Shown here one piece after another: positions 6,388 to 10,406 of a DNA stretch of 64,000 nt. The stretch lies in the NCBI GenBank assembly GCA_963801355.1, contig CAWDEM010000008.1:1888001-1952000 (forward strand), written 5' to 3'. Both the position numbers and the translations under genes were made by a program. Each line of letters begins with the position of its first letter. Position 1 is the stretch's first letter. Origin of the DNA: Ignavibacteriota bacterium. Its GTDB lineage: Bacteria; Bacteroidota; Ignavibacteria; UBA10030; UBA6906. The notes under the pieces were generated by a model. It saw only the letters and a list, made by a program, of their open reading frames with translations. It did no database searches and was not told the DNA's origin.

Positions 6388-6446
6388 GGGAAACCTACAC
6401 AGGCGTGTACTATCCCGACGGCACAAGGAACCAACGGTACGGCGGA

Positions 6447-6475
6447 ATAATACGGAAGGGGCGCACGATAGTCAA
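6447..6475 (-). promoter_or_regulatory. Sigma70-type promoter of kinase gene
   Basis: TTGACT-N17-TATTAT on the minus strand, ~60 nt upstream of the ATG. Confidence 0.6.
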
Positions 6476-6837
6476 ACAGCCGATTTCTACTGGGGCGATT
6501 GTCGCACACTGGGATCCGGAAATACGAAGGGATACACTCATACACTCAAAAGCCGCGACACCTTTGCGGCATCGCGGCTCGTCATCCCTCACAGCTGAGG
6601 CATGAAACCTTGCTCAGGTTTACAATTTCAAATCACAGCGTGGTCACCCTCACCATTTTCTTGCAGTGAATTCTGCTTTCTTCGTGCGGGATCTTGGCTC
6701 GGGGCCTCTTGGTCGCGGGCCAAGCGTCATCCCACACCTAGCGAAAACAGGGCACATTTGACCGATTATTGTGCACCAGGCGCACTAGAAAATACAGCCC
6801 ATGTACAGTCGCAGATCCAAGACGCCAAATAACCGCG

Positions 6838-6991
6838 TTTTTCGTCGGGGCGGGGGGATTTGAACCCCCGGCCTTTTGGTCCCGAAGATTGCGGCAATCT
6901 CGGAATCGAGCGAAATGAGGGCAGTTTTGCAGATTTGAATTACATGGAGAGCATTGAATTACACAAATCGCCTACAATCTGTCTACAGTGA
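6838..6991 (-). repeat. att-like direct repeat copy 2 (tRNA-Pro(CGG) 3' half plus arm-like sites)
   Basis: Minus strand TTCGGGACCAAAAGGCCGGGGGTTCAAATCCCCCCGCCCCGAC, preceded by arm-like TGTAGAC/TGTAGGC and TGTAATTCAA x2 repeats; no tRNA 5' half. Confidence 0.85.
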
Positions 6992-7314
6992 ATTCCGATG
7001 GGAGACACTTGACGTTGCTGGTTAAGATGCGGCTGTCCACTTGGGACGGTCACTATCGGCCTTGTAGATGACACCAACCCTACGCCGGAAAGGTCTTCGA
7101 GGATCCTTCCTCCTCAGGAAATGTACCGCCCTTCGCTCAAAACAAACCAGCTCACTCGACCCTTCCCTATCAACGAGTCCTTCGCCCACTCTATTCTCAC
7201 TTTTCGAATCGGTCCCCTGATCATTTGGCTAATGATGGAACTCTGGCTTGGATGGAATTTTGACGAGGGACAGCCCTTCCCAAGGGTACAATTACGGTAC
7301 AATCGTGTTCCCAC

Positions 7315-7345
7315 AAAAAAATCCCCTTTAGAATCAAGGGGATTT
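7315..7345 (-). terminator. Intrinsic terminator after tRNA-Asn
   Basis: AAATCCCCTT-GATTCTA-AAGGGGATTT hairpin followed by a T tract, immediately 3' of the tRNA. Confidence 0.75.
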
Positions 7346-7347
7346 CG

Positions 7348-7731
7348 CTCCGCGAGCAGGACTCGAACCTGCAACCCTGCGGTTACGGCATGCTCCCATG
7401 CTTTCGCATCGGTCCGGACTATCTCATCATCCTATGACTCGTCCTGCGTCGCAGGGGGTTCTTAGGATGCCGGGCGCTCGTGGGGCTTATTGGTGAGAAT
7501 CCTCATCCCCTAGTCTCTGCACGTTCCCCGCTACACATCTTCTCTTTGCGAGGCTTCGCTCAGGGTTGCCATGTCCCACGACAGTGAGATGTAGGGTTCC
7601 CTGAATTCACCCGGTTTTACACTCCCGATTACTCGAGAGCGCTGCTTTTCCTGCATGAACCTGCATATTTCCAAAGATCACGGCTCACACAGAGCTCACA
7701 GCCGCATGCTCTACCATTGAGCTATCGCGGA
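7348..7731 (-). tRNA. tRNA-Asn(GUU), split by a group I intron (exon 1 7731-7698, exon 2 7385-7348)
   Basis: Joined exons TCCGCGATAGCTCAATGGTAGAGCATGCGGCTGT|TAACCGCAGGGTTGCAGGTTCGAGTCCTGCTCGCGGAG form a 72-nt cloverleaf with loop CUGUUAA, U1-A72 pair and G73. Confidence 0.95.
7386..7697 (-). ncRNA. Group I intron (312 nt, no ORF) at tRNA position 35/36
   Basis: IGS GCAGC (7645-7641) pairs with exon GCUGU including the U.G wobble. P2 has a GUAA loop; P3 CCGGGUG/CGCCCGG; P/Q elements GAAUUCAGGGAA and GGCAACCCUGAGCGAAGC; R GCAGAGACUA; S GAUGAGAUAGUCC; P9 with GAAA loop; terminal G at 7386. Confidence 0.93.
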
Positions 7732-7740
7732 AAACATTTC

Positions 7741-7769
7741 AATATACCCATCCCCGGAGAAAATGTCAA
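7741..7769 (-). promoter_or_regulatory. Sigma70-type promoter of tRNA-Asn
   Basis: TTGACA-N17-TATATT ending ~10 nt upstream of the tRNA 5' end. Confidence 0.8.
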
Positions 7770-7809
7770 CAACAACAACACGAATCGAAAACCGGCCGGG
7801 ACCCGGTCC

Positions 7810-8979
7810 TCAAAGTTTGACCTCGAGCAGTCTCTTCGAACTTGCCCGGAGTTCCGTGAGTCCTGCAAGCAACACGACAATCGCAAGTATGTATGGCACG
7901 ACATGATTAATCTCGAAGAGCATTCCGGCAATAACCGGAGAAACCGCCATGCTGGCCGACATGATGGACGTCAGAATACCGATCGTCTCCCCACGCCGCA
8001 ATGGCCCCGCACCTCCGGCTACCTGACTCGTGACAACCACACGCAAAACCGCCTGTCCCGTTCCCAGTCCAAGCAGCCCCACGTAGAAGAGCGGAAGTAT
8101 CTCAACGGCAATGCAGACAAGCGCAACGACCAGAATCATCAGCATGATCTCCTGCAATCTGGCCTCATCGAACCTCTTCAACCAGAAGCGCTCCAGAAGA
8201 AACACCTGATTGACGACAACAACTACACCCACCACCGAAAATGCCATCCCCGCTGCGAAGGAACTGAACCCGAAGACATCTTTCACAAAAAGCGCGAACA
8301 CGGACTGCCCGATCACGAATGCAACGGCGAATGTCGTCCAGGTCACGTAGAGCGGACGCAATGGTTTGTCACGCCAGGCACGGATTAACGGCGACAACGG
8401 ATGAAAGTCGATCGCCTTCTCTTTGGAACGGTTGCGATTCGATTCCGGCAAGAAAAGAATCGCGCTCACTGCATTCAACGATGCCAGGATGCCTGCCACC
8501 CAGAACGGGAATACGTGCGAGACTTTGCTGAGCACGCCGCCCAAGATTGGCCCGAGGAGAAATCCGATCCCGAAGATAGCGCTCAAAATACCAAGATTTC
8601 TGGTCCTCTCCTTTTCATCCCTGGCAATGTCGACCATGTATCCCTGCGCGCTCGTGAAGTTGCCGGCTGCCGCACCATCGATAATGCGTCCCAGGAAGAG
8701 CATCCAGACCGATCTCGCGCTAGCGAATACGAACCAGCCGATCGCTGTGCTGATGATGCTCATAATGATCACCGGACGCCGGCCGATGCGATCAGAAAGT
8801 GCTCCAAGGAGTGGTGCGCTGATGAATGAGAAAACAGAGAACGACGCGAAGAGCAGCGTGACGACAGTGGGAGAGACCCCGAATTCCGTTGCGTAGAATG
8901 GCAGGATCGGAATGACAATCCCGAATCCCACAACGTCGACCAGAACAGTGAAAAATACGATATATGTTTCGCGTCGCAT
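7810..8979 (-). CDS. MFS transporter, TetA/DHA1-like
   Basis: Motif A GALSDRIGRRPV, GRIIDG and GFLLGPILGG; about 12 TM segments. Confidence 0.9.
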   Translation of the reverse strand: MRRETYIVFFTVLVDVVGFGIVIPILPFYATEFGVSPTVVTLLFASFSVFSFISAPLLGALSDRIGRRPVIIMSIISTAIGWFVFASARSVWMLFLGRIIDGAAAGNFTSAQGYMVDIARDEKERTRNLGILSAIFGIGFLLGPILGGVLSKVSHVFPFWVAGILASLNAVSAILFLPESNRNRSKEKAIDFHPLSPLIRAWRDKPLRPLYVTWTTFAVAFVIGQSVFALFVKDVFGFSSFAAGMAFSVVGVVVVVNQVFLLERFWLKRFDEARLQEIMLMILVVALVCIAVEILPLFYVGLLGLGTGQAVLRVVVTSQVAGGAGPLRRGETIGILTSIMSASMAVSPVIAGMLFEINHVVPYILAIVVLLAGLTELRASSKRLLEVKL

Positions 8980-8985
8980 AAGGGG

Positions 8986-9651
8986 TCACTTCCCTCCCCT
9001 GCGATGGTGCAGTTGTACTGCAACCTGACTCAGCGGCACCTCCTCAAGCTCCATCATGACCAAAGCGTGATACAGCAGGTCCGCCACCTCCCACGCAATC
9101 TCGTCCTTACTGTGGTTCTTTGCTGCAATGATTACTTCCCCTGCCTCCTCGCCAACCTTTTTCAGGATTCGATCAATCCCACCGTCAAGCATCCTGACGG
9201 TATACGACCCCTCCGGGCGGTTCACCCTCCGGCTGTGAATCACACGGGCCACCTCCCCAAGGATCTCGCCCAGGGCGCCCCTATCTGTCTCTTCGACCAG
9301 AGACTTCTTCGCATCTCCTCCGATCGGCTCAGGCATCGTGCGATTCAGGTCGAAACAGGAGTATGTTCCGGTGTGGCATGCCACCCCCCTCTGCCGCACA
9401 CGTATAAGGAGCGCATCTCCGTCACAGTCCTGCCGGATCGCCACTACGGTCTGTGTGTTTCCGGAGGTCTCCCCTTTGTGCCATAATCTTTGCCTGCTCC
9501 TACTCCAAAAATACGTCTCGCCTGTTTCCAATGTCCGCTTCAGGCTCTCGCTGTTCATGTAAGCAAGCGTGAGCACCTCCCCGCTCTCTGCATCCTGTAC
9601 AATCGCAGGAATCAGACCCCGTTCGTCAAATCGCAGCTGGTCGTGATTCAT
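8986..9651 (-). CDS. hisIE: Bifunctional phosphoribosyl-AMP cyclohydrolase / phosphoribosyl-ATP pyrophosphatase
   Basis: [25 protein letters not shown] and EVADLLYH motifs. Confidence 0.96.
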
Positions 9652-10406
9652 CGTACCGGTACTCCCTTGTTTCTCAGGTATTCTTTGAGTTGTCCGATGC
9701 TCATTTCACGTGTATGAAAAAGGGAAGCAGCCAGTACCGCACTGGCTCCACCGGCCGTCAGAGCCTCGGCGAAATGCTCCAGTACCCCCGCACCTCCCGA
9801 GGCAATCACCGGAATGGAGACCACCGAGGTCACCGCCCGCAGCAAATCAATATCATACCCCACCTGCGTTCCGTCACGATCCATGCTCGTCAGGAGAATT
9901 TCGCCTGCCCCCCGCTGCTCGACTTCCCTGGCCCAGAGAAGTGCATCCCGGCCCGTCGCTTTGCGACCTCCGTAGATGAACACCTCCCACCCCTCCCCCT
10001 CCTGCTTCCGACGTGCATCGATCGCCGCGACGACACATTGTGTTCCAAACCGCTCTGCAGCTTCCGTCAGGACCTCCGGCCGCTGTACCGCGGCGGTATT
10101 CAAGCTGACCCTGTCCGCCCCTGCATTCAGCAGATGACGAACATCATCCGCAGTACGCACTCCACCACCCACAGTCAAGGGTATGAAAATGCTGTCAGCA
10201 ACGGACTCGATGACGTGGATAAGCGCTTTGCGTTCTTCATGCGAAGCGGTGATATCGAGAATCACCAGTTCGTCCGCACCTTCATCATTGTAAAACCGGG
10301 CGTGGACAGATGGATCGCCCATCTCGCGGATGTCAACGAAATTCACGCCTTTGACGACCTTGCCGTCACGAACGTCAAGACAGGGGAGTATGCGTTTGCG
10401 TAACAT
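9648..10406 (-). CDS. hisF: Imidazole glycerol phosphate synthase cyclase subunit
   Basis: RILPCLDV...VVKGVNF and [15 protein letters not shown]. Confidence 0.97.

Follow-up and report, generated by a model that had tools for sequence, protein, structure and literature searches.

The 64,000-nucleotide (nt) stretch of DNA analyzed here (the window), from an Ignavibacteriota bacterium, carries on its minus strand a gene for tRNA-Asn(GUU) that is interrupted between U35 and U36 of the anticodon by a group I intron of 312 nt. We hold with considerable confidence that this is a stand-alone, expressed gene for the sole tRNA-Asn(GUU) of the organism and that the intron within it is an immobile, inherited passenger. 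The intron is real and, judging from its conserved anatomy, probably functional.

Results

When introns were allowed, ARAGORN called tRNA-Asn(gtt) at this locus with an intron of 312 nt and the junction gctgt/taacc, and the exons joined by coordinates gave a clean cloverleaf of 73 bases with the anticodon GUU. The raw count of the program places the insertion at 34-35, which in standard tRNA numbering corresponds to U35/U36 of the GUU anticodon. The first base of the intron is G and that of the 3' exon is U, so that the 7-nt CUGUUAA anticodon loop results from the U35/U36 junction and from no other. The discriminator base at 7348 is G, an identity element of tRNA-Asn. The split at 35/36 claimed in the original prediction was reproduced in this way, and the coordinates (7348 for the end of the tRNA and 7386-7697 for the intron) agreed. 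Both exons lie on the contig in 13 intron-bearing relatives; in 12 of these they are identical to those of the window, and the copy L014 has two substitutions. In its default mode ARAGORN made no tRNA call at the locus, as had been anticipated for standard finders, and the sections of the tRNAscan-SE 2.0 paper covered here describe that tool as not designed for such introns. The gene is flanked, as first described, by a promoter-like site, recognized by its position, whose -10 hexamer ends 10 nt before the 5' end of the tRNA, and by a terminator-like site (Table 1).

Comparison with the Rfam group I model RF00028 (Intron_gpI), named in the original prediction as a check, gave a match at 7645..7395 of the minus strand that spans the full model (positions 1-253 of 253). 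With 86.3 bits against a gathering cut-off of 50 and E=1.4e-20, this match lies far beyond chance. A permissive Rfam scan of 6400-7900 also returned SpF41 (25.8 bits, cut-off 52) and ilvB-OMG (13.8 bits), both at chance level. All of the hallmarks that had been read from the letters are present: guide sequence, P2, the P3/P7 pseudoknot, an extra hairpin, P8, P9 and the terminal omegaG. We replaced the bulged P3 of the Rfam alignment by a continuous helix of 7 base pairs (bp), CCGGGUG/CGCCCGG, since the latter is 100% paired across the family; one of its pairs is U-A in 66 introns and C-G in 29. The two pairs of P9.0 also vary (GC 52, AU 41, GU 3 at one; AU 45, GC 41, CG 9, UG 1 at the other), and this short helix would fix the 3' splice site. 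A candidate P10 pairing was weak and was not retained, as it has 0 bp in 71 of the 97 introns mapped below.

Copies of the intron were collected by a species scan (one genome per species in GTDB) with a 21-nt motif from the joining segment J6/7, P7 and the stem of the extra hairpin, and at least 117 species genomes were found to carry the intron locus. Strict exon mapping resolved 97 of 130 loci, the other 33 being excluded by the exact-stem rule or by locus ends. All 97 mapped introns are preceded by GGCUGU, end in a terminal G (omegaG) and are followed by UAACC. The guide GCAGC is likewise found in 97/97, 33-34 nt before the P3 motif, and forms 5-6 bp with the exon; because the exon side is invariant, there is no covariation for the exon strand of P1. 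One identical duplicate (L078, equal to L003) was excluded from the alignment, and the structure, drafted from the Rfam alignment and by eye, was counted on 96 distinct introns (alignment A1).

Across these 96 introns, 91.2% of cells are paired in the proposed structure, compared with 36-49% when the partners are slid by 1-3 columns. Changes on both sides were found for 45 of the 71 pairs, and none of 500 column shuffles reached any of five covariation measures. Covariation supports P2, P3, P5, P6, P8, P9, P9.0 and the hairpin at the P7.1 position. The window copy shows no deviation at the 125 alignment columns that are conserved in at least 90% of the 96 introns, and by this comparison its ribozyme core appears intact. 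In one aligned intron, L054 from a Bacteroidetes metagenome-assembled genome (MAG), 244 nt long, the extra hairpin is without its 3' half, P3' is absent and P8 is halved; this deletion (A1 columns ~375-443) marks either a dead intron or a misassembly.

The hairpin at the P7.1 position, which is present in 95/96 aligned introns, offers a candidate tertiary contact. In the window, the P6 loop GAGAA is complementary to UUCUC in the loop of this hairpin, the P6 bases engaged being at about loop positions 4-8, after a conserved GAA. At least three contiguous Watson-Crick pairs can form between the two loops in 95/95 introns (mean 4.23), compared with 2.87 for shuffled loop partners (standard deviation 0.09, maximum 3.15 in 500 shuffles), a comparison that kinship among sequences can inflate. 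The column-wise count gives 67.6% paired and is the weaker measure because the loops align poorly. However, there are 39 distinct complementary loop combinations (for example, CGGC/GCCG, GGGU/ACCC, GCGC/GCGC, UGAGA/UCUCA and AAGGGG/CCCCUU), and so many compensating combinations would be hard to explain without pairing between the P6 and P7.1-like loops. A limited literature search found no description of such a contact.

By length, the 97 mapped introns form two groups, one of 61 introns (234-359 nt) and one of 36 (536-578 nt), and the stretch from the 5' splice site to the guide sequence measures 6-14 nt in 42 introns, 31-112 nt in 19 and 302-316 nt in 36. In the long forms, an open reading frame (ORF) in the P1 loop starts ~10 nt into the intron, continues through the guide GCAGC and all of the P2 hairpin, and terminates within P2 or directly behind it. 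About one-third of the copies carry a gene for an HNH homing endonuclease of ~106 amino acids (aa) in this loop. ORFs of 106-110 aa are found in 6 of the 13 intron-bearing relatives, and intact ORFs across the family span 104-169 aa; among the 36 long forms, 3 have no ORF of at least 90 aa and 4 are visibly frameshifted, the latter being excluded from the ORF alignment (A2).

The ORFs share an invariant C-x2-C ... F-H-H ... A-N motif and a nearly invariant C-x2-C-H. Of 29 intact ORFs, 23 match Pfam HNH (PF01844) at E<=0.01 and 3 match HNH_2; the first ORF alone scored 17.1 bits against the Pfam cut-off of 21.4, the first two ORFs alone were sub-threshold or empty, and a search of the endonuclease against NCBIfam gave no match. 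A profile of the 29 ORFs matched two PDB entries: a group II intron maturase (6me0_C, E=2.7e-4) in its C-terminal part, residues 473-549, which we take to be the HNH endonuclease domain of that protein, and McrA (6ghc, E=0.018). A database search returned 949 homologues, with 60-82% identity among the matches listed, some of them named HNH endonuclease or McrA, from Ignavibacteriales, Omnitrophica, Parcubacteria, WOR-3, Aerophobetes and Blastocatellia.

In the window copy, which has 52 nt before the guide sequence and falls into the 31-112-nt class, an intact HNH ORF is absent and out-of-frame remnants of 35 and 17 nt remain. Relative to the ORF-bearing copies L094 and L006, ~256 nt are deleted; L142 has a different, independent deletion of the endonuclease region. 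Judging from these alignments, the window copy is a deletion derivative of a mobile intron bearing an HNH endonuclease, not an ORF-free design, and the 52-nt stretch is a gene remnant, not a designed loop. The earlier statement that the intron has no homing endonuclease holds for an intact ORF, but it needs amending because this copy derives from an HNH-bearing form and has kept the remnant ends. Because ~256 nt of the endonuclease gene are deleted, the intron would now be an immobile passenger.

The ends of the remnant can pair with each other to extend P1. The predicted fold of 7707..7618 comprises P1, a 12-bp helix and P2, with a minimum free energy of -35.6 kcal/mol (z -3.43). In the 55 introns with a stretch of at least 30 nt, the duplex of the first 32 nt with the 28 nt before the guide has a mean of -21.0 kcal/mol, compared with -15.3 kcal/mol for shuffled duplex partners (standard deviation 0.45; best of 200 shuffles -16.5). 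In ORF-bearing copies, the P1-extension helix pairs the start codon with codons of the C-terminal ..VHAG, and in the examples inspected, which were not counted, the start codon AUG/GUG appears to track the His codon CAU/CAC. An obvious reading of these models is that folding of the ribozyme would hide the start codon of the endonuclease. A short hairpin with the compensating pairs UAG/CUA, UGG/CCA and CAA/UUG extends P1 in the minimal forms.

The genome (4.8 Mb in 8 contigs, rated 100% complete with 0.14% contamination) contains 47 tRNAs by ARAGORN without introns, covering all other amino acids and selenocysteine, and none of these 47 is a tRNA-Asn. With introns allowed across the whole genome, the split gene was the sole Asn call; nine further "intron" calls, with inserts of 4-2210 nt and no group I match, are taken as ghosts. 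BLAST of the locus against its own genome found elsewhere only T-arm matches of 24-26 nt, and no second RF00028 match exists in the genome, where the intron of the split tRNA-Asn is the single one. The conjecture that this is the only tRNA-Asn of the genome was thus borne out. Because no other tRNA-Asn was found, the organism apparently needs to remove the intron in order to decode Asn.

Five other chromosome-scale or near-complete carriers were searched by BLAST with an uninterrupted tRNA-Asn from a relative, and in four of them (G061, G062, G063 and G065) a second Asn gene was not found; their best non-exon matches, of which one or two per genome were checked, are Lys, Arg, Thr or Gly tRNAs. 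The fifth, G064, has a second, uninterrupted tRNA-Asn and an intron-bearing copy with a decayed 5' exon. Within the limits of five genomes and of BLAST, this pattern fits what selection for splicing would predict. G064 is a Binatia chromosome (loci L100 and L150) in which the intron-bearing copy is without its acceptor strand and an intact tRNA-Asn(GUU) lies elsewhere; it looks like an intron allele decaying once a spare tRNA-Asn copy exists.

We compared the distribution of the intron among relatives and across phyla. BLAST of the locus found it in 13 of 60 relatives, 10 in the same family (G001, G002, G004, G015, G017, G018, G020, G024, G031 and G033) and 3 in a different family within the order (G043, G051 and G059); in most other matching relatives the exon halves abut, giving an uninterrupted gene. 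The closest named relatives are MAGs of Ignavibacteriota and Bacteroidota, in agreement with the Ignavibacteria-like host proposed from sequence. ARAGORN, run on the 117 loci listed, called tRNA-Asn with an intron in 87 and Thr, Asp or Tyr in 18, and the remaining 12 were cut by locus ends. The 18 Thr, Asp or Tyr calls (for example, L036, L050, L033 and L089) are the same GGCTGT...G|TAACC gene with mis-set boundaries, and all 105 resolvable copies among the matches listed occupy one and the same position in tRNA-Asn.

Among the hosts of the 96 aligned introns there are at least 15 NCBI phylum labels, led by Nitrospirota (26), Ignavibacteriota (11), Acidobacteriota (7) and Bacteroidota (7) and including Thermodesulfobacteriota, Bdellovibrionota, Binatota, Bipolaricaulota, Myxococcota, Gemmatimonadota, Rhodothermota, Krumholzibacteriota, Latescibacterota, Methylomirabilota, Pseudomonadota and Bacillota. 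The same intron is common in many soil and water bacteria. Locus L120 belongs to the complete genome of "Nitrospira sp. NFB02", which points to a carrier in culture. Because the family is so widespread across phyla, occurring in at least 117 species genomes, the novelty that the original prediction had attached to this lineage falls. A quick maximum-likelihood tree of the ribozyme core, from which L054 (deletion) and L036 (Ns) were excluded, has 37 phylum-label changes against a minimum of 20 and 65 for shuffled labels. The window copy lies in a clade of 29 rows from Ignavibacteriota, Bacteroidota and its own family, with a Shimodaira-Hasegawa-like approximate likelihood ratio (SH-aLRT) support of 96. 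Because the core tree largely follows the host phylum, the distribution fits an intron that has long been resident and has spread mainly within lineages. On the intron tree, copies with an intact endonuclease gene lie next to copies in which it is frameshifted, partly deleted or fully deleted. Two placements are odd, a "Heliobacteriaceae" MAG and a "Klebsiella" MAG, and may reflect mis-binning.

Table 1. Features of the split tRNA-Asn gene, in the order of transcription
Feature	Positions	Strand	Evidence or remarks
Sigma-70-like promoter TTGACA, 17-nt spacer, TATATT	7769..7741	-	11/12 consensus matches; predicted
5' exon of tRNA-Asn(GUU), positions 1-35, ending ...GGCUGU (U35 = U-1)	7731..7698	-	ARAGORN and sequence; 34 nt
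Group I intron, 312 nt	7697..7386	-	RF00028, ARAGORN intron mode and family conservation
Remnant of the HNH gene region, 5' part (35 nt), with the stretch around the former GTG start	7697..7663	-	Alignment with L094, L006 and L142
P1 extension helix (P1a), 7693..7682 with 7661..7650, closing the remnant loop	7693..7650	-	12 bp, of which 4 are G.U
3' remnant (17 nt) of the endonuclease gene region	7662..7646	-	Deletion junction between 7663 and 7662
Internal guide sequence GCAGC	7645..7641	-	Pairs with exon GCUGU (7702..7698) to form P1, U.G at the splice site
P2 hairpin, GUAA loop	7640..7621	-	6 inner pairs covary
P3 5' strand CCGGGUG, partner 7476..7470	7614..7608	-	All cells paired (100%); two-sided changes at 3 pairs
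P4 (7604..7599 with 7565..7560) around P5 (7595..7569)	7604..7560	-	P4 nearly invariant; 6/6 P5 stem pairs covary
P6 hairpin	7553..7526	-	5/6 pairs covary; loop GAGAA at 7544..7540
P7 5' strand G(A)GACUA, bulged A 7516, partner 7421..7416	7517..7511	-	Invariant, 96/96
Extra hairpin between P7 and P3' (P7.1 position), 29 nt	7510..7482	-	Stem pair A-U 54 / G-C 40; loop UUCUC at 7499..7495
P3 3' strand CGCCCGG	7476..7470	-	Covariation
P8 hairpin	7468..7429	-	5/6 outer pairs covary
P7 3' strand UAGUCC	7421..7416	-	Invariant
P9 hairpin, GAAA loop	7412..7395	-	95.7% of cells paired in the family; G.G mismatch in the window copy
CC of P9.0 (partner GG 7415..7414), then omegaG 7386	7388..7386	-	2 bp, 100% paired
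3' exon of tRNA-Asn, positions 36-73, starting UAACCGCA	7385..7348	-	38 nt; CCA not encoded
Intrinsic-terminator-like hairpin and T-run directly after the tRNA	7340..7314 (hairpin and T-run also given as 7340..7323)	-	Sequence scan

Upstream on the same strand lies an ORF of 389 aa (7810..8979) for a multi-pass membrane protein, transporter-like by eye, and further upstream (8986-10406, minus strand) are ORFs whose translations resemble hisIE and hisF by eye; a terminator-like hairpin at 7813..7785 stands between these upstream ORFs and the tRNA promoter. Downstream is an 877-aa ORF that by eye is Ser/Thr-kinase-like. ORFs of 86 and 114 aa on either strand overlap the intron region and cross the tRNA and the ribozyme; they are taken as chance frames. 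The last ~10 nt of the intron (gagcaugccg, 7386-7395) resemble the D-stem/anticodon-stem stretch gagcaugcggcugu (7698-7711) of the tRNA, because of which BLAST aligned intronless relatives from query position 341; the likeness may be chance or a trace of the insertion event. Elsewhere in the window, an uncalled element of ~70 nt at 6835-6905 (minus strand), also found at 1621-1687, ends in a tRNA-like T-arm and acceptor 3' strand. BLAST against its own genome gave six further matches of 83-98% identity, three of 67-71 nt on contig C8 and three of 27-49 nt on contig C4, and the element may be a small tRNA-derived repeat.

Discussion

The anatomy suggests how the gene would yield a mature tRNA. 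The precursor would fold so that exon GCUGU and guide GCAGC form P1, with a U.G wobble at the splice site, and free guanosine bound in P7 would attack after U35. OmegaG, presented by the 2-bp P9.0, would next occupy the guanosine site, and ligation of the exons would restore the CUGUUAA anticodon loop. The fold would be braced by the GNRA loops on P2 and P9 and by pairing between the P6 loop and the loop of the hairpin between P7 and P3'. The family as a whole, with its HNH homing-endonuclease gene in the P1 loop, would be mobile and would target one site, and the window copy would be an immobile, vertically inherited member that must presumably splice for Asn codons to be read.

Several points weigh against this account. 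No splicing product was seen for the organism. No public run contains more than 0.31 of the sampled words of the stretch, and six RNA runs contain 0.07-0.08. Four metatranscriptome runs were compared with the locus at 85% likeness. Contigs of family members cover parts of the intron as well as its junction with the 3' exon (records 10 and 23, for example), two one-contig joints (X16 and X17) skip exactly 312 nt (7385 to 7698), and other joints match minimal-loop and ORF-bearing relatives. However, because the exons are identical in intronless relatives and RNA libraries may contain DNA, these contigs and joints are uninformative on transcription and splicing of this gene. P4 and P7 are invariant across the family and so give no covariation evidence. 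The alignment and the structure derive in part from the same sequences, and the search motif used to collect the loci lies in J6/7, P7 and the hairpin stem, so that part of the conservation in these elements follows from the selection itself. The window copy itself shows, in P9, a G.G mismatch at a position that is paired in most relatives, a P1 of 5 bp compared with 6 bp in 88/97 introns, and a P10 of at most 1 bp. Shuffled sequences contain on average 1.0 promoter-like site and the scan found 1, so that it is the position, not the count, that speaks for the promoter. Finally, ARAGORN could conceivably have missed a very divergent second tRNA-Asn.

The same structural weaknesses would be expected if the intron were real but needed a host protein, such as a chaperone or maturase-like factor, to splice in the cell. 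Some group I introns with weakened peripheral contacts depend on proteins, and the window copy has lost the endonuclease gene, whose product might conceivably also serve as a maturase. Yet 61 of the 97 mapped introns are without a full ORF while the split gene is the apparent sole tRNA-Asn in four of five further genomes, and the core is fully conserved, so that we consider such dependence unlikely.

Decayed copies do exist in the family, such as L054 without its P3' and L100 with a broken 5' exon beside an intact tRNA-Asn elsewhere, and the window copy might by the same token be a decaying pseudogene with a dead ribozyme, Asn decoding being served otherwise. This is highly improbable given that there is no other tRNA-Asn in a 100%-complete genome, that the exons are identical to those of 12 relatives and no conserved column deviates, and that the flanking promoter- and terminator-like sites are intact. 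It is scarcely credible that assembly or binning joined a tRNA gene to foreign intron DNA. The genome is apparently a metagenome assembly in 8 contigs, and the family includes an implausible host label ("Klebsiella pneumoniae" MAG), but the exon-intron-exon arrangement recurs in 13 of 60 relatives and at the same site in all 105 resolvable copies among the matches listed, the window copy nests in the clade of Ignavibacteriota, Bacteroidota and own-family rows (SH-aLRT 96), and the contig extends ~1.9 Mb or more around the locus. A split gene for the sole tRNA-Asn(GUU), with its intron an inherited passenger, remains the explanation that we favor.

Carrier genomes will be annotated as being without tRNA-Asn, and pipelines that allow introns would still mislabel some copies, as with the 18 of 105 resolvable listed copies named Thr, Asp or Tyr. 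Completeness checks and codon-usage inferences are affected in Nitrospirota, Ignavibacteriota, Acidobacteriota and others. An essential decoding function would hang on a ribozyme in many free-living bacteria, which makes the family a natural system for studying the upkeep of efficient self-splicing under selection, the invasion, decay and loss of homing-endonuclease genes, and the overlap of an ORF with catalytic RNA helices. The covarying contact between the two loops gives a prediction on the structure of a small ribozyme that can be put to the test; if true, the kissing helix between P6 and the P7.1-position hairpin would hold the P4-P6 and P3-P7 domains together.

The classical bacterial tRNA group I introns interrupt tRNA-Leu(UAA), tRNA-fMet, tRNA-Ile(CAU) as well as tRNA-Arg(CCU) and belong to subgroup IC3, as in Azoarcus pre-tRNA-Ile. 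Like them, the tRNA-Asn intron is a small (~200-300 nt) ribozyme in the anticodon loop after a U, with a U.G pair in P1, GNRA-capped P2 and P9, a P9.0 before omegaG and no P5abc-type extension; its relatives have a CCUAAG/UAUGG-type receptor motif in P5, which presumably matches that of Azoarcus. It differs from them in its host (Asn, at 35/36), in an extra hairpin that is predicted to kiss the P6 loop and in the HNH gene in the P1 loop of many members. The core presumably is IC3-like; however, subgroup IC3 has, to our knowledge, no peripheral insertion between P7 and P3', whereas a 29-nt hairpin stands there in all but one of the aligned introns. In subgroup IA this place is taken by P7.1/P7.2, and the tRNA-Asn intron has one hairpin and no second there, a comparison confined to this region of the core.

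The phage T4 td intron (IA2) has its ORF in the P6 loop. Like td, the tRNA-Asn family embeds an endonuclease gene in the intron, but in the P1 loop, and it has a single short hairpin in place of P7.1 and P7.2, which would pair with the P6 loop, whereas the td extension, in the portion of the literature covered, packs on P7-P3-P8. The group I introns of transfer-messenger RNA (tmRNA), as far as described in the covered portion of PMC11915505, likewise reside in a structured RNA, carry an endonuclease in a minority of cases (36/883) and have some insertions in the P7.1 region, but they lie in the T-loop of tmRNA and encode LAGLIDADG rather than HNH endonucleases.

Williams 2020 (bioRxiv 10.1101/2020.01.27.920355) raised the number of types of group I intron-split bacterial tRNA genes from 4 to 21. 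Those types were discovered, as here, with an Rfam covariance model and the intron mode of ARAGORN and, like the present intron, have U-1 and omegaG at one of eight anticodon-loop positions. Neither "Asn" nor "Ignavibacteri" occurs in the running main text of that preprint; the 17 new types are listed in its Table 1 and Fig. 3, and because the family is so common, the Asn type is probably among them. By that nomenclature it would be labeled "Asn.4Ug", a label derived here and not seen in print. A 2017 study of cyanobacterial tRNAs (PMC5733544) concerns, in the parts covered, other isotypes, and a 2014 review (PMC3984707) has no Asn case in its section 11 and the other passages covered. Among the papers found in our literature searches, none names a group I intron of bacterial tRNA-Asn, and none describes the kissing hairpin, an HNH frame running through the guide and P2, or the start-codon helix.

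At the level of sequence, every group I feature that was looked for is present in the window copy. It is possible, if on balance doubtful, that the intron represents an undescribed pan-bacterial family confined to one site (U35/U36), often in the sole Asn gene, and combining a kissing helix, an HNH ORF overlapping the guide sequence and P2, and a start-codon helix. Compared with the known systems, novelty is most probable for the overlap of the endonuclease with P1/P2, for the start-codon helix and for the kissing loop of P6 and P7.1.

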